A stretch of DNA of 37,854 nucleotides from assembly GCA_046538345.1 (NCBI GenBank), contig JBKHJB010000002.1, forward strand, positions 1-37,854. Reading direction: 5' to 3'. The position numbers and the translations under genes are program-made. Positions 2-15,605 of this stretch are shown here, piece by piece. The notes below the pieces were generated by a model. That model was not told where the DNA came from. It did no database searches and saw only the letters and a list, made by a program, of their open reading frames with translations. Source of the stretch: Phycisphaerae bacterium. Lineage in GTDB: Bacteria; Planctomycetota; Phycisphaerae; SM23-33. Position 1 is the first letter of the stretch; every line of letters begins with the position of its first letter.

Positions 2-2008
2 CTAGTCCACACGGGATTCGATAAATCTCGGCCTCTCGCCGGATACGTCGATGGTCAGCTTCTCGACGCCGTCGCTCAATTGCAGCACGCCTGAGCCGAC
101 ATCCTGTTTGACATAGGGCGACTCAAACACCGGCCAGTTCTCATAGTCGAGTTTCCGGCCGTTGGTCCAGGCGTCGGGCCTGCCGCCGGGACCGCCCGTG
201 TGGCGAATCTTCAACTCGTCGTCGCGGAGCGACCTGAACGTCACCGTTCGCTCGTCGGCAAACCGCGACAGGTCCAGCTCGCATTCGTCAACAACGGCCG
301 ATCGGAAATCGCCAAAAGTTTCGTAATCGCTCTGCTGGCCGAGCTGAACCACCCACCCCGTAAGCTTCCCCGCCGAGACCAGCCAGCGATAGGTCTCGTC
401 GGAGTGGTCGGGAAGCTCGGCGAACTCGGCCCGGTCGTTGAGCGGTCTGGCGGCGAGGTAGGCCTTGTTCACCTGCCAGAAGAACCACCCTCCTTCGCGC
501 ACCGGCTCGCCGGCCGCCGCGGGTACGCCGAAGACACTCCGCTCAACCACGCGGTCCGGGTCCCCCCGGTGGCGAAGCGGCTCATGATCCGTCACGTAGC
601 AGATATTGACGGCCGCGTCGCGCGCCTGGTGGTATTGGTCGAACGGGCTGCGACCCTCCAGCGGGAAGTGCCCGTGGTAGCCGTTGGACGCTCCAAAGAC
701 CAACACGTCGCGCTTATCCAGCAGTGCCGCCTTGAACATGGTCGTTTGCGGCAGGATGGTCCCGCTGGTCCGCACCCCCTGCTCCGGCGAATAGAGCGTG
801 CCCATGGCGTACTGATCGTTGAAATACAGGACCTCCTGGTCCTTATTTGCCTCAGTCCCTTCGTAGCTGGGCTTACAGCCGCGGGCTCCGTATGGCATGG
901 GCACGTTCTTGGCGGCGATATTGCGTATCACCCGATGCGGCCGATAATTCGACAACGCCAGGTTCAGCGCCGGATATCGGTTTACCTCCACGTGCTGTCG
1001 GTCCATCCAGACGCCACGCGCCGAGGCGTCCCACCACAGCCAGCCGACCCAGTCTGTATGAGTTCCGGTCTGGGAATACCTTAGCGGCTCGGTGCCGGGG
1101 AAAGTCGGCTTGGCGCTGGTTGTGCCGACCGGCTCGCGTGCGAACCCGCGGGCTTCCGGGCCTATACTGACCCCGTGAAAATACTTGCGGGCATAAGCGG
1201 CCGCGAGCCAGTGCAACGTCGCCCGGGCGGTGTCCCGCATTTTGTCGTCCTCGCCGAAGTCGTAGATGTTGGCCAAGCTTGCCGCGCTGAAGCCGACGTA
1301 GGTGGAGCTGTCGTACTCGCCCTGCCCCACCGTGTAAAACTGCCGCGCGCGTGCTGTTATCCAGTCGGCGAGCCACTGCTTGTGTTCGTCGAAGCCCTCG
1401 CGGGGAAATCTTTCGTCCAGATACTCCGCCCAGACGTATCCGCTGCACCGGCTCATGAACCGATGGTTCTCCGTACCGCCGGACCGCATAATGCGGAAGA
1501 AGTTACGCGCGTCGTACACGTTGCTCTCGACCACGTCGGGCGGCAGTTTGTCCGCCAACTGGAAGAACAGCCGCGTCCGCTGGAAGGCGGAGAAGTGATA
1601 CAGTCCGCGGTCGCTCTTGAGCTTGTCCACTTCCATCAGATAGCGATAGAGACGTAGTCCGGCTTCGTCGCGGGGGTTCATGTAGAGCCGGGCAAGCACC
1701 ACCGGCATGGCGTACTTGTGGGGGTCTCCGCCGCCGTTGGAGAAGTAATCGGTCCGGTCGAACCAGTCGAGCAGCGCGTCGGGGTCGCGCTCGGCCGTCT
1801 GGCGGATGTAGAATCGCGCCCGGCGACGAAAGGCGGCTTCATAGGGTTCATCCAGGGGGACATCGTCCGCGGAGATACCCGCCTCGGCCGATACGGCCGG
1901 CGCATCGGCGGGCTTGGTCTGCTCCGCCGCGGCGCAGGAAGGCGCCGATGCTACCACAACCATGATGAATGAAATCAGCACGAGCTGTTTTGAGACCGGC
2001 GCGTTCAT
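2..2008 (-). CDS. Secreted protein of unknown function. Helical N-terminal half plus beta-rich C-terminal half, so possibly a polysaccharide lyase/hydrolase-like fold.
   Basis: ORF 2..2116 ends in TAG at 2-4. The first ATG is at 2008, directly preceded by AAGGAG (rc of 2015-2020). It gives an N-terminal signal peptide, MNAPVSKQLVLISFIMVVVASAPSCAAAEQ. No catalytic motif recognised with certainty. The fold guess rests on composition and pattern only (TENH and YDSSTY segments). Confidence 0.6.
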   Translation of the reverse strand: MNAPVSKQLVLISFIMVVVASAPSCAAAEQTKPADAPAVSAEAGISADDVPLDEPYEAAFRRRARFYIRQTAERDPDALLDWFDRTDYFSNGGGDPHKYAMPVVLARLYMNPRDEAGLRLYRYLMEVDKLKSDRGLYHFSAFQRTRLFFQLADKLPPDVVESNVYDARNFFRIMRSGGTENHRFMSRCSGYVWAEYLDERFPREGFDEHKQWLADWITARARQFYTVGQGEYDSSTYVGFSAASLANIYDFGEDDKMRDTARATLHWLAAAYARKYFHGVSIGPEARGFAREPVGTTSAKPTFPGTEPLRYSQTGTHTDWVGWLWWDASARGVWMDRQHVEVNRYPALNLALSNYRPHRVIRNIAAKNVPMPYGARGCKPSYEGTEANKDQEVLYFNDQYAMGTLYSPEQGVRTSGTILPQTTMFKAALLDKRDVLVFGASNGYHGHFPLEGRSPFDQYHQARDAAVNICYVTDHEPLRHRGDPDRVVERSVFGVPAAAGEPVREGGWFFWQVNKAYLAARPLNDRAEFAELPDHSDETYRWLVSAGKLTGWVVQLGQQSDYETFGDFRSAVVDECELDLSRFADERTVTFRSLRDDELKIRHTGGPGGRPDAWTNGRKLDYENWPVFESPYVKQDVGSGVLQLSDGVEKLTIDVSGERPRFIESRVD

Positions 2009-2099: not shown

Positions 2100-2897
2100 C
2101 TATTCCTTCTCCTCAAGGCGGTCGACCTTGATTTCGACGTCCTCGCGGTGGCGGATCTGCTGTATTTCGCCGTCCTCCATCCAGACGATGCGGTCGGAGA
2201 CGTCGAGCATCTTATGGTCGTGCGTCGAACAGATGACGGTCACTCCCATCTCGCGGTTCATCTCCTTCATGAGATGAATTATCTGCTCGCCGGTGGTGAC
2301 GTCGAGATTGGCGGTCGGCTCGTCGGCGAGGATGATGGCGGGGGTGTTGGCGAACGCCCTGGCGATGGCGACACGCTGCTGCTGCCCGCCGGAAAGCTCC
2401 TTGGGAGTATGCAGTATGCGTTCGCCGAGTCCGACCCGCTCGAGTATCTCCACGGCCCGGTCCTGAGCGTCGTCACGCGGCACACCGGCGAAGAGCATCG
2501 GCAGCAGCACGTTCTCCACAGCAGTCATGACCTTGATGATGTTGTAGCTCTGAAAGATGTAGCCGATCTTCCGGCACCGCAGCCAGGCCAGTTCGTTGGC
2601 GTCGAGCTGGGCGACGTCTATTTCGTCGATAAAGACATTGCCGTCGGTCGGCTTGGTAAGTCCACCGACACAATTGAACAACGTCGTCTTTCCGGAGCCG
2701 GAAGGTCCCATAATGGAGATATATTCACCGGACCGGATGGACAAGCTCACATCCCGCAGGGCGTGGATGACCGCCTCGCCCATGACGTAGTCCTTGCAGA
2801 CGTTTTTGGTCATGACGGTGCAATCGACCTGCTGGTCGAGATTTGCGAACCAGTCCACATGGCCCGTTTGCTGTTGTTGCGAATTCGCGGTGGTCAT
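2100..2897 (-). CDS. ABC transporter ATP-binding protein, MacB/LolD/FtsE-type (ATPase 2 of the operon)
   Basis: Walker [11 protein letters not shown]-loop IGYIFQSYN, signature [14 protein letters not shown], Walker [13 protein letters not shown]-loop STHDH. Its ATG at 2897 overlaps the stop of the upstream permease as ATGA (2894-2897). Confidence 0.93.
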
Positions 2898-3490
2898 TTC
2901 TCACCTCGCATCGCCTCGACGGGCGGCATCTTCGCGGCGACCCACGCGGGGATGGAAGCGCCCAGAGTGGTAAGGATCATCCCGACGAAGAAAACGAACA
3001 GCACCTTCCAGGGAAGTCCGCCAAGCTCAAGCTCCGACCATATCGCGCCGCCGTGCTGCAACAACCCCAGCAGTATGGAGATAATGCCGCCGACCACGGC
3101 TCCGGCGGCGGCGCCGATAAGCCCCACCATCGCCGCTTCCAGCAGAACGCTGTAGAGCACCATGCTGTCCAGCGCCCCGAGGCATTTGATTGTTCCTATC
3201 TCACGATATCTCTGGCTGACCGACATGAGCATGGCGTTGAGCACACCGGCGGCGGCGACGATCAACGCCAGAGTCAGCATCAGATACCAGCTCTGCTGCT
3301 CGGATGTCTCCGTCTGCCGGGGCATGGTCAAAAGATACATCATGAAAGCGGTCGCCACCGTGATGGTCAAACACGTCAGAAACGACCTGAACAGACGCAC
3401 CCGCAAGCTGCTGACGGCCATCGACCAGACCACCTCGAAGCGAAGCTTCAGGTGCCCTATTTCCCAGTGGCGTACCTGCGTTTCACCCAT
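2894..3490 (-). CDS. Minimal FtsX-family ABC permease: 4 TM helices and almost no extracytoplasmic domain
   Basis: FtsX-type core SQRYREIGTIKCLGA followed by two more TM helices, ending PAWVAAKMPPVEAMR. The loop between TM1 and TM2 is only about a dozen residues (MPRQTETSEQQS). The ATG at 3490 lies 1 nt after the upstream TAG (3492-3494). The track start at 3508 is a TTG. Confidence 0.85.
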   Translation of the reverse strand: MGETQVRHWEIGHLKLRFEVVWSMAVSSLRVRLFRSFLTCLTITVATAFMMYLLTMPRQTETSEQQSWYLMLTLALIVAAAGVLNAMLMSVSQRYREIGTIKCLGALDSMVLYSVLLEAAMVGLIGAAAGAVVGGIISILLGLLQHGGAIWSELELGGLPWKVLFVFFVGMILTTLGASIPAWVAAKMPPVEAMRGEK

Positions 3491-3491
3491 A

Positions 3492-5552
3492 CTAATACCC
3501 GGTTCCAATCGAGACCCACAGGAAGTAGATTGCGATCGCCAGCATTCCGGTCAGGCCCATTCCCGCGCTGAATCCTACGGCCAGGATGGGCGCGAAGTTT
3601 GTCCATTTTTCACGGCCGAACTTCCTGGCGAAGTAGAACCGACCCAGCAGAGCGCCGATGAGCAACGGCACCGCGCGGTCGAATCGGCCTGTGAGGGTGG
3701 CGATGGCGCCGTAAACGTATTGCGTGCTGAAGCCAAAAATCGCCGAGAGTATGAAGAACGTGCACACGCCGCCGAAGGTGCCGCCGATAACCCAGGGGCG
3801 TAACGACTGCTCGAACATCAAGCTCCCTTCCTGCATCGAGGACGCCCAGAGTGCTTTCATCTGGGCGTGCTGCGGCCAGAACTTCTGGGCGAACGGGTAG
3901 CTCTCGGACGGAATGGGACCGAGGGAGTTGATATAGCTCCAGAAGATGAACGACGCTATCAGCATCAGCGGGAATACCAGCAGCTCGGCCTTGAAGATGG
4001 ACGTAAACTTCGTCCGCGTGAGCTGGCAAATCCTCAGCTTGTCGGCCATTCCTCCGAAGTTATGCAACGGCAGCGGGGCGAACCATATATCCACGTATTT
4101 GTAGCCGGACGTGAAGATGGCCGTTTCCATCACGAACGGAACACCCGCGTATTGACCGGCGATACCACTCATTCGTGCGTTGATATAGGTGTTTATCGGT
4201 GTCCAGATGAAGGCGAAACCTATCAGCCAATAGACGCTGAAACCCTTCTCGCCCTCGGGAATATTGGAGTTGACAAGGTGGTTGGTGAGGACCACGAAGC
4301 CCACCGACGCAATCATCCACACCAATACCGCCAGCCAGGTGGGTGGGTCGCCGCGGGGCTTGTCTCGACGTATCAACCCCCTCACGCTGGCAGTCTCGGG
4401 CTGGTCTTTCCGTCGTGCCCTGCTCAGCGCGCGGATCACCCCCACCAATCCGAACGCGAAAACGGCAAAAGACACGCCGATGGACACAGACAGGTACAGA
4501 TCCACCGTGTTTGAGACGTGCGTCTGTACGGCGTCCATCTGGCTGTCCCAGTGTGGCAAGTACCCGGCGGGCTGAAGGAAGAACGGATTGACCACCAGGT
4601 GCACCAGCACCGCCGAGCCGACCATTCCCAACACGATCCGCCAGGGCAGCACGCAGCCCACCAGCACAAGCGCCAGGTTCATGCTGATGGCGATAGCCGC
4701 GGCCGGGAAAATATGATTCAGGTCCTGCGTGAGGTCCCAGAACGGGATGGGTATCAGTTGCAGCGGTTCGTCGAGGAATGCTTTAGAGAGAATCGGAATC
4801 GCCATGTAGAAGATTCCGAACAGCGCACCTCCGACGATGCCTACCGCGAAGCAGTACTGGCGGAAGCCCTTCTTTCGCTGTTCCTGGCTGCGTTCGGCCA
4901 GCGCGATCGCGCCCTCTGCGTGGACCGGCGCCAGCGGGAACGGCAGCCGCTCCACATCCGCGGTGAGTTTATACGCCAGGAATCCCAGCGAAAGCTCCGT
5001 AAGCTTAGAGAGCGTCATCGCCGAGACGATCACGGCGACAACGGGCTGCCATGCAGGCCCGAGAAAGCCCTGCTGGTAGGCGACATCACCATACGGAGCG
5101 AACCAGTCCGGCACCTGGTGGGCGATTCCGAAGTTACTGAACGCCTCGGAGTTACGCAGATATCGCTGCCAGACCAGCATGGCGAACACGCCGCCACCCA
5201 GCGCCAGTCCGCCCATGATGTGGGTAAGACTGCTGACGGTGTACTTGAGTATGTACAGCTCCTGCTTGCGGAGCGTTACGAAGCTTCGTCGCGCAATTTC
5301 CACAAACAGGATGATGGTGACCCACTCGGCCGCCGTACCGAGGTCCTGACCGATCATCAGCCCCATAAAGATGACGCCCGGCAGCATGACGAAGGCCACG
5401 AAAAACGCGCCCAATATCGTCCGCCAGGTGAAACCGTCGTCGTAGGGCTCATGCTGCATCGCCTCGATGGAAAACGAGGCGTCGTAGAAACTCTCGCCCT
5501 GCTCGTCCGTCTGCTGTGCCGGCTCGTTGTTCTGATCGGGCTTCTCAGCCAC
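3492..5552 (-). CDS. Polytopic integral membrane protein, OPT-superfamily-like, many TM helices (paralog of the C-terminal part of the 11311..14559 product)
   Basis: 686-aa ORF, hydrophobic throughout. The motif ERLPFPLAPVHAEGAIAL resembles the OPT-family L-P-[FY]-P-x-G-x-A signature. The GTG start at 5552 abuts the TAA stop (5553-5555) of the giant gene and has AGGAGA upstream. An internal Met at codon 32 is an alternative start. Confidence 0.7.
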   Translation of the reverse strand: MAEKPDQNNEPAQQTDEQGESFYDASFSIEAMQHEPYDDGFTWRTILGAFFVAFVMLPGVIFMGLMIGQDLGTAAEWVTIILFVEIARRSFVTLRKQELYILKYTVSSLTHIMGGLALGGGVFAMLVWQRYLRNSEAFSNFGIAHQVPDWFAPYGDVAYQQGFLGPAWQPVVAVIVSAMTLSKLTELSLGFLAYKLTADVERLPFPLAPVHAEGAIALAERSQEQRKKGFRQYCFAVGIVGGALFGIFYMAIPILSKAFLDEPLQLIPIPFWDLTQDLNHIFPAAAIAISMNLALVLVGCVLPWRIVLGMVGSAVLVHLVVNPFFLQPAGYLPHWDSQMDAVQTHVSNTVDLYLSVSIGVSFAVFAFGLVGVIRALSRARRKDQPETASVRGLIRRDKPRGDPPTWLAVLVWMIASVGFVVLTNHLVNSNIPEGEKGFSVYWLIGFAFIWTPINTYINARMSGIAGQYAGVPFVMETAIFTSGYKYVDIWFAPLPLHNFGGMADKLRICQLTRTKFTSIFKAELLVFPLMLIASFIFWSYINSLGPIPSESYPFAQKFWPQHAQMKALWASSMQEGSLMFEQSLRPWVIGGTFGGVCTFFILSAIFGFSTQYVYGAIATLTGRFDRAVPLLIGALLGRFYFARKFGREKWTNFAPILAVGFSAGMGLTGMLAIAIYFLWVSIGTGY

Positions 5553-8500
5553 TTAGCCGCTCTCCTGGATTTCGCTGTGCTGGTCACGGAACAGTTCGGC
5601 GCCCTCGGTTATGTAGTTCATACGCGCGTCGTTGTCGAGGTTACGCCACAGAAGGAACTGGTGCCTGACCAGGTCCATGAAACCGTAATTCGTACGCAAC
5701 CATGCGTCCTCGGTGCCGGAGAAGCGATGGAGATTCAGTTGCACACCGAAGACTCCCTCGTTCTCGGTGGGAACTATCTTCATCTCCATCTTCTGAGCGA
5801 CGTCGAGGTCGTACGGACTGAGCCACATATCCGCTCGGATCCGTAAAGCTTCCTCCTCGCCGCTGAGCATATCCAGCTCTATATTCCGGCAGTTGAAGCC
5901 CGGGCTGGCCGCCTCGGTGTGATTCAAGAGAAACCGCCGGAAGAACGCCATCATACCCACGGCGTTACCGCGGGTCAGTGTGAAAGGCAGGTCGAAATGG
6001 ATGCTGTGATCCGACGGCTCGGGCAGTTCCCACTTACCCATGCCGCTGGGCGCGGCCAGGCGGGCGGCCTTGTTGGCGGGCACGAGAGTCGCCAGCAGCA
6101 CCACCACGCCGGTCAGCATAGCCAGTCCCAGCGCCGAGAGAGAGGTGAAGTTCAAGCTCAGGCCCGCCAGGAACTCCGGGTTCACGTTCTGCACCCAGCC
6201 GACAATGTTGGCGAACAACAGGCCGGAAAAGGTGCCGAAAACGATACCCAATACGCTGAAGACCGACGATTCGCTCAGCAGCAGGAAAGATATCTGACCC
6301 GGTGAAAGGCCGATCGCGCCGAGCATGCCGACCTCACCCTTTCGCTCCTCGACGTTGGCGAGCATCGTGTTCAGCACAATGAGTATGCAAAGGAGAACCG
6401 GGACGACGATCTTCGCCAGACCGCCGATGCTCGAAACGTTCTTCGCGGTCACCAGCGCCGGCTCACCGTCCCTGGTGCCGAAGACGGTTCTGTTGGTCCG
6501 CAGCGCGAAGTCCTTGTAGAACTGCGCCTGGTCCTGGTTTCCACCGAAACGCACGGCCACCGAGCGATTCTTGGCTTGCACCTCGTCGGAGGCGGCGTGC
6601 GGGACGATCGCCAGATCTTTCCAGCTCATGTGGTACAGGGGCTTTTCGTTGATTATATCCCCACTGCCGGCGCTGGCGGTTATGGCACTGCGCCGATAGT
6701 CCACCATCGCAAGCGACTTGCCGTTGACGTCGCGAATGCGGTCCGCGTGGTCGGTGTCCAGTATGCCGACGACGCGCCATTCGCGGTTTCGCATCAACAC
6801 CTTGGGCAACTCATCCTCATCGAGGCGGTTGCCGTCCTCGTCGTAGATCATATCGGGCGTTATGCCGACCGCCTCTGCGCAATTGTCCGGCAGTATGACC
6901 GCGAATCGCTCGGCCGGAATCCCGCGCGACCTGTCCTCCGCACGGAACCATTCGTTGTTGCTAACCGCCTCGTTCAGACCGCTGAAATCCGGCTCGTTCG
7001 GCATAAACGTCATTACGCCCGTGATGATGTCCATCCGGTCGCCGTGGCGGACCTTGATCTGATTGACCCCCTCACGGTCCATATTGTTTCCACCCTCGAC
7101 CTCGAGATAGTAGCCACGGGTGGTCATCTCGTGCTCCGGTCCGAACTCGCTGTAAACCGCCGAGACAAAGGTGTCTTTCAGTTCCGTCCAGGAGAAGTTG
7201 CGGAACATTATCCCTTCGTACTTCGGAGCCAGCGGGTCCACCCTCCGCCCGGCTACGTCCTGCTCAAGCGGTACGGGGCGAATGTGCATCTCGTCTTCGC
7301 CGCGGACCGATACAAAGGTAATTATCGAGAACGTCAGCACGGTTACGGTAAAGACGGTCAGGAACGTCCTCGCCGGTCGTTTCTTGAGGTTCGAGACACC
7401 CAGCGAAAGGGCCGTTCCCAGCGACCCCATCAGACTTATCTCGTCGCCTTCGACCTCACCGGCGGCCGCCCTGGCGCGACGCACCAGCACCTCGAACCGC
7501 TGGTAACTCAAGACCAGCACGATCAGCGCCATCAATATCATCGTGAAGGCGATCATCACCACGAACGGCGAGACGGCAATGTCGAACGCCGGGTGGAAGA
7601 ACTTCATGAACACCACGCCCAGCACAAAGATTATCGCCGTTCCCACCAGCCGGGCGACGATGCTGCTACCGCCAATGACCAGACGCTCCAGAAACGCGCT
7701 GGCCGGGACGAGCAGACCCATGAGTATTACCGCACTGAAGACGGCCTCGCGACCCAGCTTCAGGATACGCGGCAGGTTCTTGACCAGGATACCCCAGCCC
7801 TCTCGGGCAAGCCCGACGGACGACTGCCAGTCATGCTCTTCGGCGGCCTGGCGAGACCTGTCTATTTTCGCCCGGCTACGTTCCAGCGCGTCATAGACCG
7901 AGGAGTCATGAATCCCAAACTGCTCATAGAGGTCGTAGCGGTACCGCGCGATGCGGTACATATCCTCGGCAACCCGCAGAGGCGTCAGCGGGAGCACCAG
8001 GTTGCGGTCATTCCCGTCGGGACCTACGGCGTAGCCCTCGCCCTTGAGGTCCATGACTTCCTTCGTCTCCTGGTCCTTGGCTTTCTCGGGCAAATCGCCG
8101 ACGAGCAACATCTTGTACTGCATGCTCTTCTGCGCCAGCACTCTGGCTCTGCGACGCTCGGGCTTGTACTGCTCGGGATCGAATCCGGGAATATCCTCCA
8201 GACCCGGCAGTCCCTCCCCCAACTGGCGTTGCTCGTACGACATATACAGAACCGTAGAATCGACATCCTGCTCTGAATACTGCAACTGCGGATTGTCCAG
8301 GGCATAGTGCCGGGGTGAACCATTGCGGACGGCGTCAACCACCCTCAGATCCTGGCGGTCCCCAGCAGTTCCTCCGATGGGCTGATAGTCCATCGGGTCC
8401 GGACCGGGAGCGAACACCCACGGGTACACATCGGCGAGGATCAGGTTCTTTTCCTCGTCTTCACCGTCGCGGAGTTTGAATGTCATCGACTGCTGCTGGG

Positions 8501-11294
8501 TGCCGAGCTGTCCGCGATCCATCGCCTTGTCAAACAGCGCCCTGTCGCGGTTGAGGCGATATGCGTAAATTAACGGCTCGCCCTTGCTGACGCTGTAATC
8601 GACCGTCTCCAGCGGCATACTGTAGCTGCCGTTCTGCAGCGTAATCCGCAGTATGCCCCGGCGAGACCCCATGTAGGTAGCGCTATTCTTGGTCGCGCTT
8701 GCCCAGTCAACATTTTTCAGAGCCGGGTAGTACACCCAACTGCGCGCCACAGGTGCGGTGGCATTGATGCCCGAGCGGATGTTGTACTCAACGGCCGCTC
8801 CGAGCAGGCGTCCGAAAGCCGGTGCATCCACCTTGTCGGGAGCGAGAGAGTCCGTGGGATTCTCCACACCCAGCTTGGTGAGCAGCAGCATAGTCCGCGC
8901 CTGGACGGAAAGGTTCTCGAAGTCCGTATGCTCCGGCGTGTCGTGCGGAGTGTCCAGCAGTTCGCGGCGGTCATTGTATGTCGAAGCCGGCAGCAACGCC
9001 ACATTACCCGCGGTCCAGAACTCAGAGTAGTGCGTCGCGCCTTCAGGGACGACCATCGGGAACTCGCTCTGGTCCTCGTCCCGTAACCAGGACCACTGCT
9101 CGTCCCAGCCGGCGCGTATGCCGGCAAAACCCACAACCTTGCTGAATCTCTCGGCCAGTCGTTCCGCATTGCCCGCACCGGCCGGTCCGACGTCTCTGAA
9201 CTCTTTGGCTGTATTCATCCCCACAGACGACGAGCCCTGCGACAAGTCGTAAAGCCATGCCAGAACCGGCTCTTGTCCCTCGGGATGCAGCAAGTCCATG
9301 CATTTACCGACCACCTCGATGTTGTTCTCGTGGAAGGAATGCGTTTCGACTTCCTCAGCAAGCTCCCGCCTTAATCTGTCGGCAAGGTCTTTCTGGGTAA
9401 CATCGTAGTATTGGAAATACTCCCGGTGCTCTTCTTCGCCGAGACGCTGCCAGAACGCCTTGATGCGCTCAGCCCAGCTCCAGCTCTGGTTTCGGAGTGT
9501 CTCGCGACGAATGTCACTGAGGAAGTCCATCCACTGCTGATAGCGGTCGATAACCTTCTGCATCGACGCGTATCGCTCGTCGTGTATCTCCTTGAATTTC
9601 TGCTCGTAGAGGTCCTCGTCCCGCTCGCGGAGGTCGGAAAGCTCGTCTCGAAGCTGCGAGTCGAGCGCTTGCTGACGTTTGATAATCTCCACGCGGGTTT
9701 CGGCGATGGTGACTCGCGCCTTTTCGAGCTGGCGCGGCAGCCAGTCCATACCGAACCACAACGCGACCTCGTCGTCCAGCGGGGCCTGCTCGGCGTCATC
9801 CAGCCAGTCGGCGACAGCCCTGTATTTGGCAATCTTCTCCTGCGGGTCCGCGACAAATGGCGATCCAAGCCCGTCTTCCTTGTTCAGCAGAACATATTCG
9901 CCGAATGTCCGACTGCTCAGCCCGCCGACGTTTTCGGCGTCCAGGAACGCGAAGACTACGCCCTTGCGGCGGATTACCGACTCGCTGGTCGCCAGGTGCT
10001 CCATCGCCGTCAACGCCACGGCTAGATTGGTCGCCACCTTCGCCCCGTGCGGGGCGCCCGGAACGACAGAGACGCTGTCTATGGGCACCTGAACCATGAC
10101 CGTGTCGTCGGCGTTGGGGATGGTCAGAACCTGCCCCGGCTGGAGATAACGCGTTTCGAGGTCGTTGGCCTCGGCTAAGGCGTCGGCGGAAAGAGCGTAG
10201 TCCGAGGCGATGCGACTGAGAAGCTCGCCTTCCTGGATGGGCACCGGGTCTTCCTGGTTTGGTACCAGCAGATCGTCAACACCGGTCAGCTCCGGCGAAT
10301 CCAGTCCGTTGTCCTCCATCAGACGGCTCGGACTCACGCCGTATTCTGTCGCGATGCGGTCCAGCAGATCGCCCCTGCGGACCTCGTATTTGACCGGCTC
10401 GGTGGGCGGAAGGTAGGCGAAGATGGACTCAAAACGGCGGTTGGCGTAGGTGTTGCCGCCTCGCAGCCGACACTCGCTGCCCTGTGCTATCTCCGGCTCG
10501 TCGCCACCGTCGCGATATACCTTGCGCGTAGCGTGGCTGCGGATTTCCCGACCGGTCTCCGCGTCGACATAGAATCGCGGCATCGGCACCGGCGTGTTGC
10601 AGAACAACCCCTCGGCTTTCTCGCGGCTTACGCGGTCGTCCTCCACAACCACCACGGCCCGGGCGCCAAGCGACATCAGACGGTCCCAACGTCGCCCGCC
10701 CTGGAAATCCATCAGGACAATAGCGCCGTCGAGATCCAGCCCCTTGATCTCGTCCCAGTCTCCGATACCCACGTCGATAAGAGGCCCGGAAAGCCCGTCC
10801 TTCGGGCACAGCGAGGGCATCGCACCGTTCGGCCAGAGCGGCTGGAGGACCCAGCTCTCATCCCCGACCGTCAATGTAGCGGGCTTCCCTCTTTTTTCGG
10901 GGTCTTCCAGCCGGTCCAGGGAAACAGGCACAGCCACCCGCCCCTTCAACGAACCGACGTACTCAACACCATCGTCCTGGAGATCCTCTATCCGCTCCAG
11001 CAGATAGTTGTGGATCGGGGCACGTCCCTGCTCGTCGTAGTCGCGAGACCCGATACCAAGGTTGCCGCCGCAGCGCGACAGGATTTGCTCGACCTGTTCC
11101 CGAAGCGCCTCGGCCGAGGTCACCTCCTCGATCTCGTCGAGTGACTCCTGGGAAAGTACGGCCGTGTTATCCAGACGGCGCCTTTCCAGGGATGAGAGTT
11201 CGTCCGCTCGTCGCGCGCTATAGTCGGTCTGCGCCGACGCGGCGACCGCCTGCAAGAGCAGCACGCAGAGGAGGATCGCCGATTTCTTGATCAT
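5553..11294 (-). CDS. Giant (1913 aa) envelope protein. Order of parts: signal peptide or anchor, M28-like/PA ectodomain with 2 LysM modules and a coiled-coil insert, 3 TM, a MacB-like module (TM, ~290-aa ectodomain, FtsX TM triplet), and a 164-aa cytosolic tail.
   Basis: ATG at 11294 with GGGAGAG upstream. N-terminus MIKKSAILLCVLLLQAVAASA/QT. PA-like block LWPNG...GAIVLMDFQGGRRWDRLMSLGARAVVVVED. Two LysM-like blocks (YEVRRGDLLDRIATEYGVSPSRLMEDNGL...LLVP and IQEGELLSRIASDYALSADALAEANDL...QVLTIP). FtsX core VEERKGEVGMLGAIGLSPGQISFLLLSES. MacB-type N-helix LSLGVSNLKKRPARTFLTVFTV. Confidence 0.9.
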   Translation of the reverse strand: MIKKSAILLCVLLLQAVAASAQTDYSARRADELSSLERRRLDNTAVLSQESLDEIEEVTSAEALREQVEQILSRCGGNLGIGSRDYDEQGRAPIHNYLLERIEDLQDDGVEYVGSLKGRVAVPVSLDRLEDPEKRGKPATLTVGDESWVLQPLWPNGAMPSLCPKDGLSGPLIDVGIGDWDEIKGLDLDGAIVLMDFQGGRRWDRLMSLGARAVVVVEDDRVSREKAEGLFCNTPVPMPRFYVDAETGREIRSHATRKVYRDGGDEPEIAQGSECRLRGGNTYANRRFESIFAYLPPTEPVKYEVRRGDLLDRIATEYGVSPSRLMEDNGLDSPELTGVDDLLVPNQEDPVPIQEGELLSRIASDYALSADALAEANDLETRYLQPGQVLTIPNADDTVMVQVPIDSVSVVPGAPHGAKVATNLAVALTAMEHLATSESVIRRKGVVFAFLDAENVGGLSSRTFGEYVLLNKEDGLGSPFVADPQEKIAKYRAVADWLDDAEQAPLDDEVALWFGMDWLPRQLEKARVTIAETRVEIIKRQQALDSQLRDELSDLRERDEDLYEQKFKEIHDERYASMQKVIDRYQQWMDFLSDIRRETLRNQSWSWAERIKAFWQRLGEEEHREYFQYYDVTQKDLADRLRRELAEEVETHSFHENNIEVVGKCMDLLHPEGQEPVLAWLYDLSQGSSSVGMNTAKEFRDVGPAGAGNAERLAERFSKVVGFAGIRAGWDEQWSWLRDEDQSEFPMVVPEGATHYSEFWTAGNVALLPASTYNDRRELLDTPHDTPEHTDFENLSVQARTMLLLTKLGVENPTDSLAPDKVDAPAFGRLLGAAVEYNIRSGINATAPVARSWVYYPALKNVDWASATKNSATYMGSRRGILRITLQNGSYSMPLETVDYSVSKGEPLIYAYRLNRDRALFDKAMDRGQLGTQQQSMTFKLRDGEDEEKNLILADVYPWVFAPGPDPMDYQPIGGTAGDRQDLRVVDAVRNGSPRHYALDNPQLQYSEQDVDSTVLYMSYEQRQLGEGLPGLEDIPGFDPEQYKPERRRARVLAQKSMQYKMLLVGDLPEKAKDQETKEVMDLKGEGYAVGPDGNDRNLVLPLTPLRVAEDMYRIARYRYDLYEQFGIHDSSVYDALERSRAKIDRSRQAAEEHDWQSSVGLAREGWGILVKNLPRILKLGREAVFSAVILMGLLVPASAFLERLVIGGSSIVARLVGTAIIFVLGVVFMKFFHPAFDIAVSPFVVMIAFTMILMALIVLVLSYQRFEVLVRRARAAAGEVEGDEISLMGSLGTALSLGVSNLKKRPARTFLTVFTVTVLTFSIITFVSVRGEDEMHIRPVPLEQDVAGRRVDPLAPKYEGIMFRNFSWTELKDTFVSAVYSEFGPEHEMTTRGYYLEVEGGNNMDREGVNQIKVRHGDRMDIITGVMTFMPNEPDFSGLNEAVSNNEWFRAEDRSRGIPAERFAVILPDNCAEAVGITPDMIYDEDGNRLDEDELPKVLMRNREWRVVGILDTDHADRIRDVNGKSLAMVDYRRSAITASAGSGDIINEKPLYHMSWKDLAIVPHAASDEVQAKNRSVAVRFGGNQDQAQFYKDFALRTNRTVFGTRDGEPALVTAKNVSSIGGLAKIVVPVLLCILIVLNTMLANVEERKGEVGMLGAIGLSPGQISFLLLSESSVFSVLGIVFGTFSGLLFANIVGWVQNVNPEFLAGLSLNFTSLSALGLAMLTGVVVLLATLVPANKAARLAAPSGMGKWELPEPSDHSIHFDLPFTLTRGNAVGMMAFFRRFLLNHTEAASPGFNCRNIELDMLSGEEEALRIRADMWLSPYDLDVAQKMEMKIVPTENEGVFGVQLNLHRFSGTEDAWLRTNYGFMDLVRHQFLLWRNLDNDARMNYITEGAELFRDQHSEIQESG
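6048..7370 (-). other. MacB-like permease module 2 of the giant protein: TM1, ~290-aa extracytoplasmic domain, FtsX TM2-4
   Basis: Hydrophobic RTFLTVFTVTVLTFSIITFVSV, then a soluble segment, then GGLAKIVVPVLLCILIVLNTMLANVEERKGEVGMLGAIGL...LLATLVPANKAARLAP-type FtsX ending. Confidence 0.8.
10116..10388 (-). other. Two tandem LysM (peptidoglycan-binding) modules inside the giant protein (aa ~303-393)
   Basis: Both repeats follow the LysM pattern: Y/I-x-V/-x-x-G-D/E-x-L-x-x-I-A-x-x-Y, then a helix, N-x-L, and a final hydrophobic strand ending in P. Confidence 0.75.
10590..10877 (-). other. PA (protease-associated) domain-like insert in the giant protein (aa ~140-235)
   Basis: LQPLWPNGAMPS...LSGPLIDVGIGDWDEIKGLDLDGAIVLMDFQGGRRWDRLMSLGARAVVVVED matches the PA-domain pattern (G-x-I-x-L-x, R-G-x-x-x-F, K-x-x-x-A-x-x-x-G-A-x-x-V) by eye. 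Confidence 0.6.
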
Positions 11295-11310
11295 CTCAGC
11301 ACTCTCCCGG

Positions 11311-14300
11311 TCAATAGACCGAAGGACTGTAAGGCATGTGATCCTGGAACTGCTTGAGGATGCCCTCGGTACCGGCCTCGCCGACCTCCGCGGAGATCGA
11401 CGCGATCAGGTCCACACAGTTCCACAGGAACACGCACATCACCGCTCCGACCACCAGGCCGATGAAAAACGGCTTCGCTCGCTTGTAAGAATACATGCCG
11501 CCGTACTTGACGACCAGTTTCTTGATAACCCAGGCCACCAGAACACTGCCCCACAGCCAGGAGGTCTCACCGGCGATTCCGGAACCTCCCTTGTAGTAGG
11601 GCGAAACCCATTCGTAATAGACGGACAAAAGCAACAGCATGTATCCCAAGGGGTGGAACGGGAACCGGAGGAACCTGTTGCGAAGGAACGTCAAAACAAG
11701 CAGAGCGCCCGCACCGACCATCATGAAGTGGATCCTCACCCAGTGCGGGTCGGTAAACTGCCCCAGTCCGACCTCGCCCAGGAAGTGAGAGACCCACAAC
11801 GGATAGTGCGCCAGGCCCTGGCTGCTGGTGGGGCCTTGTCCGCTGACGCCGGCATCGGCGCCGGCGTAGAATTCATTTCCGTAGTAGTAGGAAAACGCCA
11901 GGAAGCTCACCATCCCGACCGACAGGGCCACCAGGAACGCCACCAGCCCCGCCACCGCTATTGTTTTGTATTTTACCTTATTCCGGCGGGCCAGTTCAAT
12001 GTTCTCGAGATGCTGCGGGAGCGTCCGGAAAAGCAGCGTCACCGGCAGGAAAACGATGTTCACAAACAACGCGTAAGTCTTGGCGCCGGTGGCGCCGGTA
12101 AGCCCGAATACCATGGGGAACTTGCTGTACTCGTAAGAACAGTGGTGTGTAGGCAGTCCCGTTTCCGCACGGACCCTGGCGCCCGCGATGGTCTGCGCCA
12201 TCACCAGAAGCGCAAACAGCGCCAGGAACCAGGACGACGCCGGCGAAAAGCCCATATTCCACAGCAGCAGCAGGACAACGACCGGTAGAACGATCAGTCC
12301 GAAAAGGTTCAGCCGACGCGGGATAAAGTGGTCGGCCTGAATCTCCGAATCCTGCCGGCGGCCCAGGCGGAAGCTCTTGTAAAGAGTTACCCCGGTGAAC
12401 GCCACCACCGCGCCAAGCATCTGTTCCATGGGGAACGGGAACATCCGTCCCGCGGCCCAACCGGTGTAAACGCTGTCCCGCGGAACCTGATCCATCGATA
12501 TGTTGGTGAAGAAGATTATGAAGCTGTAGATGAAAAACAGCACCCATACCGAGAAGCTGATTTCCAGACTGACCAGGAATGCAATACCGATAACTATCGG
12601 CGAAAGAACAAGCTGGACCTCGTCCATCTCCTTCAGGACACCGGTCTTGAAGACCTTATCGGAGATATTATAGGCCATCAGGTACTCGCGAGAGACCAGC
12701 CCGTAGTGCCCGGCGGCCTCGGCGGTCAACCAGATAAGCCCTATTCCCAGTCCCAGCAGGAAAATGGGATTGAACTGCATTCGCCGTTTGGGCGGATCCC
12801 GCGGGTCCACCGACAGCTCAAGCTCCCAGTCGTGACGGATAATGCTGTCGGCCACGTCCACCAGAGGGAACGCCAGATTCTCCCGCTCCACCCATTTGCG
12901 CCGCAGCCACTCGGCCATGCACATCAGGAACAGAAAGACAGACGTGAACAGCAGCCCCCACATCACCATCGGACGAACCCACAGATGCCACGGCAGGTCT
13001 CTGAACAGCGTTCGAATGTTCTGCCTCAAGGGCACATCCTGCTTGCGTCTCTGCTCGTCGAGCGTCCTCCACAAGCTCTCGTTGAAGCCATCGAGGTTCT
13101 GGTCGGGCGTCCCGCCACTGCCGTCCTGTCGCCGAATCGCCTGCCGCTCCCGCCGGGTGAGACGATAGACGAAACTATTGCGGAGCTGGTCGAACTCCGC
13201 ATCGTCCATCTGCTCGTAGCTGCTGAGATAGTGACTCGACAATCGATCCAATACACGCCGAAAGTCCGAGTCGCTCAAAGAGGTAACCTGTTTACGAATA
13301 TCCTCGAACCGCTTTTCGAGCCACTGTTTCTGCTCGGTGAGCTTCGAGTGGCGCTGCTCATCGAGCCCCTCGACTGTGAAATCGATACGCTCCTTGCTGT
13401 CCACATCGAAGCTCTCGTAATTGACCGGAATCAGACTGGCCGCGAACTCGCTGGTATTGACCAGCTTCTCGGGCAGTTCCTCGGCCGCCTCGGCGCTGCG
13501 TTCCAGGGTCTCCTGATATCGCTGCCGCAACAAGCCCGCCAGCCCCATCCGCTCCAGCGCCTCGCCCGCTTTCGCGCCGCGAGCGCCCTGCTCGTGTCGC
13601 TCGGCCAGCTCGATAATCCTGCGCAGTTGATCCGGCCCCATTCGGCGTATGTTCTCGGTGAGTTCCTCTATCTCCTCCCGGGTCGGTTCAGCTTCCCGGG
13701 CGGTTTCACCCGCCTGAATCGCGTCCAACCTCTCCGCCTCGGCTTGAATCGCCTCCAGCAGGCGTTGAGCGGGCTCGCTAAGCTCATCCAGCACTTCGCC
13801 CTCGGGCGCGTCAACACCCGGCGCCGTTGCGGCTTCTGGGATTCCGGGCTTGGGTTCGTCGGCCCGCTCGGCCGCACGCTCCAGCAAAGCCCCCAACTCC
13901 AGCGACTCAAGGGCATCCGGGTCGGCGACGGCCTGTATCTTCGCGGCCTCGTCGGGAGACAAACCCTCGGCGACTTCTGTGAGTCGCTCAATCCCTTCAC
14001 TGTCGGGTTTGTTTTGACGTGCCTGTTCGGCCTTTTCCAGCCGTATTAATCGCTGCGACTCCAGCAACAACGCGGCCGCCGCCTTTCGGCGGGCCTCCTC
14101 CTGTTCTTTGATTATTTCGTCGTCGCGCAGCAGCCGAAGAAGGCGGTCGGACTTGTTCCACGCCACCCCCTTCTTGGTCGGAACCAGCGGGAACCAGTCT
14201 TCGTTGAGAACGTTGTAGGCGGTCCTGTAGGTGCTGGTGCCCTGCTCGAGATACTCGCGCATCACGGCGTTCATCGTCAGGAAGCACTGCCGCACCATGC

Positions 14301-14559
14301 CGATATTCATAACCGGCACGGAAATGGTGAGCATGCTGTAGAGAATGACCAGACTGGCCTTGCCGACAATCGGTCTGAGAAACCGCAGCACCGCCAGCGC
14401 CAGCACGATACTGAAGATGATTCCCACCGCCCAGCCGACCGGAGTTGCCGTCTCCAGGTCGAGATTGACCGTCATGATCGTAAGGAACTGGCTGAGCGGG
14501 GCGATCAGGGCGATAAGGAACACGCCCACAAGCACCGTCACCACATGTGACAACTTCAT
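11311..14559 (-). CDS. Large polytopic membrane protein (1082 aa): 3 N-terminal TM helices, a ~420-aa charged alpha-helical soluble insert, then an OPT-like multi-TM body
   Basis: ATG at 14559 (MKLSHVVTVLVG...) is preceded by AAGGAAG. The track start at 14598 adds a basic, non-hydrophobic extension. The insert is rich in E/R/A/L (EEARRKAAAALLLESQRLIRLEKAEQARQ...). After it comes the motif WVERENLAFPLVDV and more than 12 hydrophobic helices. Stop TGA at 11311-11313. Confidence 0.85.
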   Translation of the reverse strand: MKLSHVVTVLVGVFLIALIAPLSQFLTIMTVNLDLETATPVGWAVGIIFSIVLALAVLRFLRPIVGKASLVILYSMLTISVPVMNIGMVRQCFLTMNAVMREYLEQGTSTYRTAYNVLNEDWFPLVPTKKGVAWNKSDRLLRLLRDDEIIKEQEEARRKAAAALLLESQRLIRLEKAEQARQNKPDSEGIERLTEVAEGLSPDEAAKIQAVADPDALESLELGALLERAAERADEPKPGIPEAATAPGVDAPEGEVLDELSEPAQRLLEAIQAEAERLDAIQAGETAREAEPTREEIEELTENIRRMGPDQLRRIIELAERHEQGARGAKAGEALERMGLAGLLRQRYQETLERSAEAAEELPEKLVNTSEFAASLIPVNYESFDVDSKERIDFTVEGLDEQRHSKLTEQKQWLEKRFEDIRKQVTSLSDSDFRRVLDRLSSHYLSSYEQMDDAEFDQLRNSFVYRLTRRERQAIRRQDGSGGTPDQNLDGFNESLWRTLDEQRRKQDVPLRQNIRTLFRDLPWHLWVRPMVMWGLLFTSVFLFLMCMAEWLRRKWVERENLAFPLVDVADSIIRHDWELELSVDPRDPPKRRMQFNPIFLLGLGIGLIWLTAEAAGHYGLVSREYLMAYNISDKVFKTGVLKEMDEVQLVLSPIVIGIAFLVSLEISFSVWVLFFIYSFIIFFTNISMDQVPRDSVYTGWAAGRMFPFPMEQMLGAVVAFTGVTLYKSFRLGRRQDSEIQADHFIPRRLNLFGLIVLPVVVLLLLWNMGFSPASSWFLALFALLVMAQTIAGARVRAETGLPTHHCSYEYSKFPMVFGLTGATGAKTYALFVNIVFLPVTLLFRTLPQHLENIELARRNKVKYKTIAVAGLVAFLVALSVGMVSFLAFSYYYGNEFYAGADAGVSGQGPTSSQGLAHYPLWVSHFLGEVGLGQFTDPHWVRIHFMMVGAGALLVLTFLRNRFLRFPFHPLGYMLLLLSVYYEWVSPYYKGGSGIAGETSWLWGSVLVAWVIKKLVVKYGGMYSYKRAKPFFIGLVVGAVMCVFLWNCVDLIASISAEVGEAGTEGILKQFQDHMPYSPSVY

Positions 14560-14617
14560 GCCGCTTCCTTTATGCCTGGCCCGCCATCGCGGGCACACGC
14601 CTATTACGGGTGGGAAG

Positions 14618-15358
14618 TCACTGTTCCTGGTCGATCGAGCCGACCGAGATATTCAGATCCTCACGCTCGACGATCCGCTCGACCTGTCCGTCGCGCAGAT
14701 ATACCACGCGGTCGGAAACGTCCAGCATGCGATGGTCGTGTGTCGCCGAAACGACCGTCACGCCCTTCTCGTCGCTCAGTTCGCTGAGCAACTGAACGAT
14801 CTCGTGCCCGGTCTGGGAGTCCAGGTTCCCTGTCGGTTCATCCGCCAGCAGCAAGCTGGGGTCGTTGGCCATCGACCTGGCGATCGCAACTCGCTGCTGC
14901 TGCCCGCCGGAAAGCTCTCCGGGAAGGTGCTTGAGTCGGTACTCCAGTCCCACGCGAGTCAGCACCTCCGCGGCTCGCTGTTCGGCGGCGTCCTTGTCCA
15001 TGCCCAGTATGCGCATGGGCAACATCACGTTGTCCAACGCGCTAAACACCTCAATCAGGTTGTAGTTCTGGAAGATGTACCCGATGTTTACGCATCGCAG
15101 GTACGCCAGCTCCGGCGCAGAGAGGTCCAGCAGGTTCCTTCCGCCCAGGTGGATGGTCCCCTTGGTGGGAAAGTCCAGGGCGCCTACCATGTTGAAGAAG
15201 GTGGTCTTTCCCGAGCCGGAAGGACCCATCAGTGAGATATACTCGCCCTGGTGGATGTCCAGGTTGATCCCGCTGAGCGCGTAAACGACTGTGTCGCCGG
15301 TCTTATAAACACGCTCCAGGTCACGGGCCTCGATGAGAATCTCGTCGGTCTTTGGCAT
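14618..15358 (-). CDS. ABC transporter ATP-binding protein, MacB/LolD/FtsE-type (ATPase 1, first gene of the operon)
   Basis: Walker [49 protein letters not shown]. The first ATG is at 15358 ([19 protein letters not shown]). The track start at 15436 is TTG and adds an atypical extension. Confidence 0.92.
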
Positions 15359-15480
15359 CGTCTCGTGCGTGTCTTTGCGCCGGGCCGCCGGACCGCTCGA
15401 CCCTGGGGCTTGAATGCAGACAATCGGGGCTTTCAAGTCCGGCTCGCCGCGTCGGAACCGGACACGCTGGATACATCCGG

Positions 15481-15510
15481 CAAAAACGACCGGCCCCTAA
15501 GACCGGTCGT
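15481..15510 (-). terminator. Rho-independent terminator downstream of the GH42-like gene; marks the upstream boundary of the ABC operon
   Basis: Perfect 8-bp stem ACGACCGG (15486-15493) / CCGGTCGT (15503-15510) with a 9-nt loop. On the minus strand it is followed by TTTTT (forward aaaaa, 15482-15486, sharing position 15486 with the stem). Confidence 0.7.
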
Positions 15511-15605
15511 CTCATCGCATCCCTTTCGGAAAGCGTGCGAATCCTAGCATACCTCCAAAGCATCCCGCAAGGCAATCGCGGAAGCAAAACTTGTCGCCGC
15601 TGAGC

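Follow-up and report, generated by a model that had tools for sequence, protein, structure and literature searches.

This analysis concerns a 37,854-nucleotide stretch of DNA (the window) from a Phycisphaerae bacterium (contig JBKHJB010000002.1 of assembly GCA_046538345.1) and, within it, six open reading frames (ORFs), g1 to g6, that lie head to tail on the minus strand at 2100-15358. They encode two ATP-binding cassette (ABC) ATPases, two proteins with an FtsX domain, one of them giant, and two polytopic membrane proteins related to the oligopeptide transporter (OPT) superfamily. The six genes form a real operon that is kept across several bacterial phyla. Judged from its sequence, the encoded system can be classified as a type VII ABC mechanotransducer with a partner set that appears to be unprecedented. 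Its genes and its upstream boundary are as follows.

14618..15358, minus strand: g1, ABC ATPase 1, 246 amino acids (aa) (ABC_tran match, 1.9e-31)
11311..14559, minus strand: g2, OPT-superfamily polytopic protein, 1082 aa (DUF6785 1.3e-45, DUF6784 8.7e-23)
12970..14292, minus strand: highly charged insert of ~440 aa in g2 (hydropathy profile and split Pfam match)
5553..11294, minus strand: g3, giant FtsX-domain protein, 1913 aa (FtsX domain, hydropathy and structure model)
3492..5552, minus strand: g4, OPT/YSL-fold polytopic protein, 686 aa, GTG start (structure model and family members)
2894..3490, minus strand: g5, minimal FtsX protein, 198 aa, four transmembrane (TM) segments (FtsX match 2.3e-16, aa 76-196)
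2100..2897, minus strand: g6, ABC ATPase 2, 265 aa (ABC_tran match, 3.3e-34)
15482..15513 (approx.), minus strand: intrinsic terminator of the upstream GH42-like gene (14-bp G+C-rich stem, then UUUUU)

Operon layout and gene products

The junctions within the cassette are of the coupling type and span from a 4-nucleotide (nt) overlap to a 58-nt gap. The widest gap separates the g1 stop codon (TGA, 14620-14618) from the g2 ATG at 14559, which is preceded by AAGGAAG. The g2 TGA (11313-11311) is followed by a 16-nt gap that contains GGGAGAG and leads to the g3 ATG at 11294. Further along, the GTG of g4 at 5552 directly abuts the g3 TAA (5555-5553), a single nucleotide lies between the g4 TAG (3494-3492) and the g5 ATG at 3490, and g5 and g6 share an ATGA overlap at 2897-2894. 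A preliminary description of this DNA had claimed six minus-strand ORFs with these junctions, and every one of them was found again when the sequence was re-read. It had also taken the genes for a single tightly packed operon. The junctions bear this out, as does the conservation of the gene block across genomes (see below).

The operon had further been described as insulated by a terminator. This is a real hairpin (~15482-15513), with UUUUU 3' of the stem, a folding energy of -24.8 kcal/mol and a z of -3.96 relative to shuffled sequences, and it sets the 5' boundary of the operon. A generic terminator scan did not pick it up, apparently because the T-run, as read in the sequence, is below the scan minimum of 5 T in 8 bases. 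Inside the operon, promoter-like (sigma-70-like) and terminator-like matches are in no excess over shuffled sequence, and an Rfam search of the whole window returned no RNA family.

Both ATPases carry the Walker A, signature, Walker B and H-loop motifs intact, as do 28 g1 orthologues and 39 g6 orthologues (67 in all). g1 and g6 are 52% identical to each other and, with these motifs, are catalytically intact ATPase paralogues of the LolD/MacB/FtsE type. One revision concerns where g1 begins. The ORF can be extended to a TTG at 15436, and that limit had previously been taken as the start. The identification as an ATPase stands, but the start is most likely the ATG at 15358, which gives 246 aa, because orthologues align from that methionine and are called at 245-250 aa. 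The top NCBIfam matches of the two proteins are LolD, DevA, MacB, FtsE and DarD, all under the equivalog cut-offs. The LolD model gives 230 and 224 bits (cut-off 307.75) and the FtsE model 205 and 204 bits (cut-off 264.85). Therefore, neither ATPase is an orthologue from one of the named systems.

The centrepiece of the cassette is g3. From the N-terminus it consists of a signal peptide, an ectodomain of ~1150 aa, three extra TM segments, a cytoplasmic linker, an FtsX module and a cytoplasmic C-terminal domain. The features that can be placed on the DNA are these.

8805..10997, minus strand: ectodomain core, aa ~100-830, with a PA (apical) and M28 aminopeptidase fold (structure model and Foldseek)
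10110..10397, minus strand: two LysM domains, aa ~300-395, inserted in the ectodomain (LysM match 2.4e-18, in two stretches)
9288..9845, minus strand: long helical, coiled-coil-like insertion, aa ~484-669, in the M28-like fold (structure model)
7767..8804, minus strand: beta-rich region, aa ~830-1100, then three stalk helices, 1104-1173 (secondary structure of the model)
7509..7766, minus strand: three extra TM segments, aa ~1177-1262, ahead of the FtsX module (hydropathy; conserved in alignment A2)
6057..7361, minus strand: FtsX/MacB-type module (TM1 1312-1330, a periplasmic domain of ~290 aa, TM2-4 1623-1746)
5556..6056, minus strand: cytoplasmic C-terminal domain, ~167 aa (near-invariant columns in alignment A2)

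The ectodomain was modelled (residues 1-1176) from an alignment of 29 sequences, with a predicted local distance difference test score (pLDDT) of 89.4 and a predicted TM-score (pTM) of 0.88. A Foldseek search of this model against the Protein Data Bank (PDB) finds the aminopeptidases BSAP/YwaD (6hc6) and PaAP, 2ek8, the transferrin receptor and GCPII (E 1e-11 to 1e-8). The sequence profile of g3 likewise matches 2ek8, YwaD 6hc6 and nicastrin. Two insertions interrupt the fold. One is the pair of LysM domains, a region that aligns with the tandem LysM of Thermus (4uz2). The other is the coiled-coil-like element, whose helices (508-551, 560-600 and 634-669) are modelled with high pLDDT.

Is this domain still a peptidase? 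The canonical co-catalytic zinc ligands of family M28 are His, Asp, Glu, Asp and His, to which a catalytic Glu is added. In alignment A2, the His of the HxD motif is replaced by Ile or Pro, the bridging Asp by Val, Gln, Ser or Ala and the ligand Glu by Asn, Thr or His. The zinc ligands thus appear to be lost across the family. Therefore, the M28-like domain probably binds no metal and is probably not a peptidase. It is more readily seen as a module for binding without catalysis, comparable to the transferrin receptor and nicastrin, and g3 probably frees no peptides by itself. A residue-level alignment to a solved M28 peptidase was tried and set aside, as phmmer gave matches to LysM only.

The membrane module of g3 matches FtsX (PF02687, 2.6e-16, aa 1631-1746) above the 25.5-bit cut-off, and a sequence-profile search of the PDB finds LolC, LolF, YtrF and MacB chains. 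g3 has no MacB_PCD match of its own and PF12704 is weak in its orthologues; ~290 aa lie between TM1 and TM2. The three extra TM segments ahead of this module would anchor the ectodomain. The C-terminal domain is among the best-conserved parts of the protein, with near-invariant columns that extend to A2 members of 18-25% identity, and it has no sequence match in Pfam, NCBIfam or the PDB. The second FtsX protein, g5, also scores above the 25.5-bit cut-off. Hydropathy places only ~12 aa between its TM1 and TM2, at the position of the periplasmic domain in other FtsX family members. Therefore, g5 has no periplasmic domain.

The two remaining proteins, g2 and g4, have no direct match to the OPT family (PF03169), and g4 has no Pfam match at all. 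Their assignment comes from relatives and from structure. For g2, the charged insert sits between the third hydrophobic segment and the remaining DUF6785 core; by composition it is probably helical. Orthologues from the Planctomycetes-Verrucomicrobia-Chlamydiae (PVC) group have it, and those at non-PVC loci, DUF6785 proteins of 659-735 aa, do not. One such insert-less orthologue, from Firestonebacteria (L071), matches OPT with 41.7 bits (cut-off 25.8). For g4, 1 of 20 orthologues matches the OPT model, more distant family members reach 64-65 bits, and some members carry the NCBI annotation OPT/YSL. At two non-PVC loci (L085, L090), Pfam calls the gene that follows the giant FtsX gene OPT. The structure model of g4 matches only barley YS1 (HvYS1; 7wst/7wsr; E 2.4e-10, probability 1.00, TM 0.59/0.67), the second-best match having an E of 0.02. 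Sequence searches of the PDB with g2, g4 and the g4 profile found no match.

g4 is the best-conserved membrane component of the cassette, with 57-67% identity in nearly all PVC-type loci and more in the closest relatives. Its family comprises 801 representatives at 50% clustering in an exhaustive search. The idea that g2 and g4 are close paralogues was rejected (BLASTP E 0.41; hhalign 11% probability, to a shifted region), and by sequence the two belong to separate OPT-superfamily lineages. Two members of the g4 family (P0176 and P0185, 990-1080 aa) have a Reg_prop/beta-propeller or a PDZ domain inserted close to where g4 has residue 575, which points to ligand-binding insertions within a single loop of this OPT-like family.

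The domain calls of the preliminary description were run against Pfam and NCBIfam and came through, also with the help of the structure models. Both ATPases match ABC_tran and, with their intact motifs, fit the proposed pair of MacB/FtsE-type paralogues. An FtsX domain is present in the giant fusion as well as in the minimal protein, and two OPT-like proteins are recovered, g4 by fold and family members and g2 by way of the L071 orthologue. One call was only half right. The LysM domains and peptidase-like fold that had been read into the g3 ectodomain are there, but an active peptidase is not supported, since the zinc ligands are apparently lost.

Conservation and variants of the cassette

Relatives of the cassette were sought in one genome per species of the GTDB, with a g4 alignment as the query. 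Of the 142 loci obtained, 80 were mapped for all six proteins, together with four loci collected earlier. The scan records are metagenome-assembled genomes (MAGs) or uncultured isolates, and none is a named cultured strain. The closest relatives are Phycisphaerae MAGs, with 80-96% protein identity to isolate E05-017. That the six families might be confined to one genome was a concern from the outset; they do co-occur elsewhere, and the cassette was recovered in dozens of genomes from different phyla. This conservation shows that the arrangement is more than chance.

The loci fall into two types. The PVC type (n=49) comes from Phycisphaerae, Opitutales, Puniceicoccaceae, Victivallales and genomes labelled 'PVC group'. 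In 22 of these loci the cassette is complete in the order seen in the window, in 6 it is circularly permuted and in none is it scrambled. The remainder are mostly cut by contig or flank ends, and 2 have no g6 within the flank. The permuted order, (g5)-g6-g1-g2-g3-g4, occurs in some Opitutales and Verrucomicrobia (L016, L019, L020, L037, L052, L073). At one of these loci, from a Verrucomicrobia MAG (L073, 4453-12065), g3 is broken up into four ORFs and g4 is in two pieces, as frameshift pseudogenes or by assembly errors. The genes that flank the cassette vary between PVC-type genomes.

The other type (n=35) is mostly from Armatimonadota/Fimbriimonadales, with one locus from Firestonebacteria. 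A g3 homologue (~25% identity) is present in 12 of the 35, always directly upstream of g4. In other words, g4 directly follows g3 in 49/49 PVC-type loci and in 12/12 g3-bearing non-PVC loci of the scan, and it does so in most of five extra metagenome contigs as well. Neighbour clustering of the 35 non-PVC loci gives g3 as the sole recurrent partner of the g4-like gene. In one complete genome of the Fimbriimonadales (L059, 8233-9663, minus strand), a DD-carboxypeptidase gene of the S13 (PBP4) type, acting on D-Ala-D-Ala, divergently adjoins a g4-like gene that stands solo. It was considered as a peptidoglycan clue and rejected, as the adjacency is not conserved at other solo loci.

Fuller non-PVC cassettes have the order [DUF6785]-g3-g4-x1-x2-g5-g6 (L048, L069, L071, L075, L077, L090). 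Among them the DUF6785 gene is found only in L071 and L090, and the contig of L048 ends inside x2. The product of x1 is a Cys-rich protein of ~300 aa that belongs to no known family, and that of x2 is a PqqD-family protein of 119-156 aa, of the type that serves as a recognition element for ribosomally synthesised and post-translationally modified peptides. A fusion of x1 or the PqqD-like protein into the g2, g3 or g4 of the PVC type was examined and rejected, as hhalign found no similarity and hmmsearch no match in the window. Both FtsX proteins occur with a single ATPase in six non-PVC loci (L069, L071, L075, L077, L086, L090), and g6 accompanies g5 in the permuted as well as in the non-PVC cassettes. 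Three features mark the PVC type, namely a second ATPase, the insert in g2 and the LysM pair, which is a PVC-clade insertion in g3.

A few loci depart further from the pattern. In L085 the order is x1-x2-FtsX-ABC-giant FtsX-OPT-ABC, with x1-x2 at 6351-7648. In L086 it is FtsX-ABC-giant FtsX-DUF6785, followed by a 652-aa protein that has no Pfam match and is probably g4-like. Just upstream (4818-8315) are genes for a histidine kinase with a HAMP domain and for a response regulator that depends on sigma-54, the sole association with a regulator that was seen. L089 holds a DUF6785 gene and a giant FtsX gene with an M28 match, then a gene for a 256-aa protein, a metallophosphatase gene in divergent orientation and a gene whose 657-aa product has no Pfam match. 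It shares one Fimbriimonadaceae MAG (GCA_964405335.1, CAYONP01) with L070, so that this genome has two paralogous giant-FtsX loci, one of them of the g3-g4 type. One metagenome contig (that of P0040) carries a divergently transcribed DUF6785 gene, a giant FtsX gene and a 662-aa protein with no Pfam match. Lastly, the Firestonebacteria locus (L071) has, directly upstream of its DUF6785 gene (584-2107, plus strand), a gene for a 507-aa DUF4398 protein with a LysM-type C-terminal region. It resembles LipL71 and the 'peptidoglycan-binding protein LysM' model and would be a counterpart in trans of the LysM domains of g3. As a general feature of non-PVC cassettes a LysM protein in trans was rejected, since it is seen only there.

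Partners, proposed mechanism and rival explanations

Partners such as EnvC, MacA-TolC, LolA, BceS and TesA are the basis on which type VII ABC systems are classified and understood. The preliminary description could place the six genes with no characterised type VII system, and the same result was obtained here, as equivalog tests for FtsEX, LolCDE, MacB, DevA and DarD all failed. It had also remarked on the absence of genes for a membrane-fusion protein and an outer-membrane factor, and Pfam searches and the ORFs of the window agree. No HlyD-family adaptor or outer-membrane factor was found among the window cassette and its flanks, nor among the called genes of three further loci (L001, L003, L004). 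The possibility that the arrangement had already been characterised was checked by a full-text literature search, which found no description of the six-gene system.

One close analogue is FtsEX with EnvC, PcsB, CwlO or RipC. Here too an FtsE-like ATPase meets a 4-TM permease of the FtsX fold with no adaptor or outer-membrane duct, and the output is probably mechanical, with a coiled coil relaying it to a wall-contacting periplasmic module that resembles a degenerate enzyme. However, the FtsX_Gneg model gives only 17.9 bits (cut-off 255). In g3 the coiled coil and the pseudo-enzyme are fused in cis, and the latter is of the M28/PA type rather than the LytM/CHAP type. No separate coiled-coil hydrolase or activator (EnvC, PcsB, CwlO, RipC) is found in or beside the cassette, where the only coiled coil is that within g3. 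There are also two unlike FtsX proteins, two ATPases and two OPT-fold partners, and the context is not a division cluster.

Type VII systems act by mechanotransmission, and their partners can be membrane-intrinsic, such as BceS of BceAB, or of the enzyme type, such as TesA of YbbAP; BceB, the permease of BceAB, has a single periplasmic domain (PMC12646458). The cassette would share with BceAB-BceS and YbbAP-TesA an asymmetric permease, in which only one FtsX module carries a large periplasmic domain (as in BceB), and a membrane-intrinsic or enzyme-like partner. However, its FtsX modules are separate polypeptides (7 TM and 4 TM) whereas BceB is a single 10-TM permease, its membrane partners have the OPT fold and are not histidine kinases, and its enzyme-like part is fused and apparently inactive. 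No kinase or regulator of the BceRS kind is present in the window cassette. MacAB-TolC, LolCDE and DevCA/DarCDE resemble it in ATPase subfamily, in the FtsX domain and possibly in the periplasmic domain between TM1 and TM2 of g3. They differ in that no gene for a membrane-fusion protein, an outer-membrane factor or a LolA-like chaperone is present here, and scores for these pump models are far below the equivalog cut-offs (lolCE 37 bits against 362).

The other parts have relatives outside ABC systems. OPT/YSL transporters (PF03169; barley YS1, 7wst) share the fold of g4 and, by sequence, include orthologues of g2 and some members of the g4 family, although g2 and g4 themselves fall below the OPT model and g2 is filed under DUF6785/DUF6784 with an insert of 440 aa. 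We know of no characterised OPT protein that is operon-linked to an ABC system, and none was found in the literature search. The transferrin receptor, GCPII and nicastrin share the PA-in-M28 arrangement, and in our reading the loss of zinc ligands is as in the transferrin receptor and nicastrin. Unlike them, g3 is bacterial, is fused to an ABC permease and carries LysM domains and a coiled coil within the fold.

The composition of the cassette is well supported; its function we infer. The preliminary description had proposed a mechanotransmission machine that acts on the cell wall and is coupled to the uptake of released peptides. This is plausible only in part, since an active peptidase is unlikely and peptide uptake is speculative. 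The favoured reading, tentative as it is, is that all six products make one heteromeric type VII ABC mechanotransducer that has membrane-intrinsic partners of the OPT fold and handles a peptide-like envelope ligand. g3 and g5 would form a heterodimeric permease, a split equivalent of the asymmetric BceB, driven by a dimer of the g1 and g6 ATPases. ATP binding and hydrolysis would shift the periplasmic domain of g3, and the helical stalk and coiled coil would pass this motion to an arm formed by the pseudo-aminopeptidase, which is like the transferrin receptor and GCPII. In the PVC version the two LysM domains would tether the arm to peptidoglycan. g4, and probably g2, would be the membrane-intrinsic partners, perhaps docked via the cytoplasmic C-terminal domain of g3, and might offer a small peptide-like ligand, bound or presented by the arm, a way across the membrane. 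The most likely role would be the handling of a peptide-containing envelope component, such as the stem peptides of peptidoglycan in the control of remodelling or in recycling. Bulk efflux is less likely.

Three arguments lead to this reading. One is that relatives combine both FtsX proteins with a single ATPase and that a g5 homodimer would have no periplasmic output; therefore, one heteromeric permease is favoured. Another is that the pairing of the giant FtsX and OPT genes is kept across phyla, of which a physical complex, or at least a tight functional one, is the simplest explanation. The third is a peptide theme made up of four independent signals, namely the OPT fold, the aminopeptidase-derived binding fold, LysM and the PqqD-family gene of non-PVC cassettes, and a peptide-containing envelope ligand is proposed on this basis. 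A more specific version, in which the mechanotransducer is stoichiometrically coupled to the OPT-fold subunits and ATP-driven movements of a wall-tethered, receptor-like arm gate or feed the transmembrane passage of a peptide ligand such as peptidoglycan stem peptides, is more doubtful. If it were true, no ABC-OPT supercomplex would have been known before, and wall peptides in PVC bacteria, Armatimonadota and relatives would have a new route.

Several observations weigh against a single peptide-handling machine. Two ATPases might equally serve two separate complexes. In 23 of the 35 non-PVC loci there is no g3 within 10 kb, many of these being Fimbriimonadales with a g4-like gene, and the OPT-like protein can therefore work alone. 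LysM is absent from non-PVC g3 orthologues and weak in some Opitutales. Therefore, cell-wall binding is not universal in the family, and a role in peptidoglycan may not be ancestral. Neither the PqqD-like gene nor its ~300-aa partner was detected by hmmsearch in the window or at any PVC locus. The confidence of the g4 model is only moderate (pLDDT 67.6, pTM 0.71), and the loss of M28 ligands was judged from alignment columns set against the motifs of the family.

What if the operon encodes two machines rather than one? The preliminary description had suggested one complex of two ATPases with the giant FtsX and another of an ATPase with the minimal FtsX. A related scheme would have two independent homodimeric type VII complexes, one of g1 and g3 (with g2 and g4) and one of g6 and g5. 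Both ATPase paralogues are fully canonical, g5 and g6 stand together at the opposite end of g1-g2-g3-g4 in the six permuted, Opitutales-type loci, as if moved as a unit, and L085 contains an FtsX-ABC pair besides a group of giant FtsX, OPT and ABC genes. However, a g5 homodimer, with no periplasmic domain, would have no obvious output, and BceB is a precedent for pairing modules with and without such a domain. In addition, g5 and g6 were never found apart from the cassette in the loci examined. Relatives with both FtsX proteins often carry one ATPase only, as several non-PVC cassettes illustrate, which makes the scheme of the preliminary description less likely than one heteromeric complex. 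Two complexes are therefore considered unlikely. Another candidate is a sensing and detoxification module of the BceAB kind, aimed at antimicrobial peptides that target the cell wall. The paired FtsX modules with and without a periplasmic domain resemble BceB, and the L086 variant does come directly after the genes for a histidine kinase and a sigma-54 response regulator. Apart from L086, though, no two-component system is found in the window or at other loci, and the giant ectodomain and OPT partners have no counterpart in Bce systems, which makes this very improbable.

The remaining alternatives differ in the direction of transport. In a nutrient importer, the arm would capture oligopeptides or oligomers containing GlcNAc from the environment, OPT-fold symporters would take them up and the ABC motor would reset the arm. 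LysM domains also bind chitin, OPT/YSL transporters are importers (g4 matches HvYS1) and PVC hosts are polymer degraders. A GH42-like gene adjoins the cassette in the window and lies near it in L016, and relatives of the downstream gene g7 (see below) stand beside GH116 in L088. Yet the neighbours of the cassette vary between genomes, no regulator, porin or TonB genes are within it, the arm is anchored at the inner membrane, beneath the wall, and non-PVC versions have no LysM. An importer is thus less probable still than two complexes. Ranked slightly lower again is a two-step exporter or extractor, in which a peptide-like or lipid-linked compound would pass through the OPT-fold proteins and be pushed outward by the MacB-like module, much as periplasmic or outer-leaflet substrates are dealt with by MacB, DarCDE and LolCDE. 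Models for DarD, bacteriocin export and MacB give the ATPases good scores, and a PqqD-family gene, typical of peptide natural-product pathways, occurs in non-PVC cassettes. Many type VII systems do extract or expel substrates (PMC12646458). However, the PVC type has no PqqD, the cassette has no conserved association with genes for a precursor peptide, a maturation enzyme, an adaptor or an outer-membrane duct, and OPT-family members are known as importers.

Under the favoured reading of one heteromeric machine, the system would make OPT-fold membrane proteins a new class of type VII partner, and its fused pseudo-aminopeptidase arm, which bears LysM and is like the transferrin receptor, would be a new output module. 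If the parts form one complex, the architectures of a primary (ABC) and a secondary (OPT) transporter would be joined in a way that has not been described before. The cassette also offers a testable functional context for two large families, DUF6785/DUF6784 and that of g4, and bears on the envelope biology of Phycisphaerae, Opitutales, Armatimonadota and Firestonebacteria, for which few cultured models exist.

Neighbouring genes in the window

Downstream of the cassette lies one more minus-strand gene.

2..2008, minus strand: g7, secreted protein of 668 aa (91 nt downstream of g6, with the Shine-Dalgarno sequence GGAAGGAG)

No terminator hairpin was seen by eye in the 91-nt gap between g6 and g7. 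g7 has no sequence match in Pfam, NCBIfam or the PDB. It is found directly downstream of g6 in 12 Phycisphaerae-type loci (26-85% identity), and genomes of the same phyla also have members of its family far from the cassette, where they adjoin GH116 or dnaN. The idea that g7 is a seventh core subunit was rejected, as the gene is syntenic only in Phycisphaerae-type loci and its family stands elsewhere beside unrelated genes. It is possibly a co-transcribed, lineage-specific neighbour.

On the other side of the cassette, the GH42-like gene (15606-17732, minus strand) has a strong match to the trimerisation domain and a weak one to the catalytic domain. A homologue with 49% identity is present in an Oceanipulchritudo MAG (L016, 19681-21837), ~7.6 kb downstream of g4, which may be coincidental. 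The rest of the window holds ordinary chromosomal genes, for example carAB, fpg and genes for a CDF transporter and an aminotransferase. One plus-strand ORF of 1171 aa (24124-27639) has a sodium:solute symporter domain only at residues 703-1105. Its N-terminal part of 700 aa has no Pfam match and overlaps long ORFs on the opposite strand, so that the ORF is an unusual fusion or else has been extended too far. Finally, this Phycisphaerae-type genome carries in the window (28420-29919, minus strand) a gene of the MttB superfamily (trimethylamine methyltransferase-like), the product of which is probably a non-pyrrolysine quaternary-amine methyltransferase.

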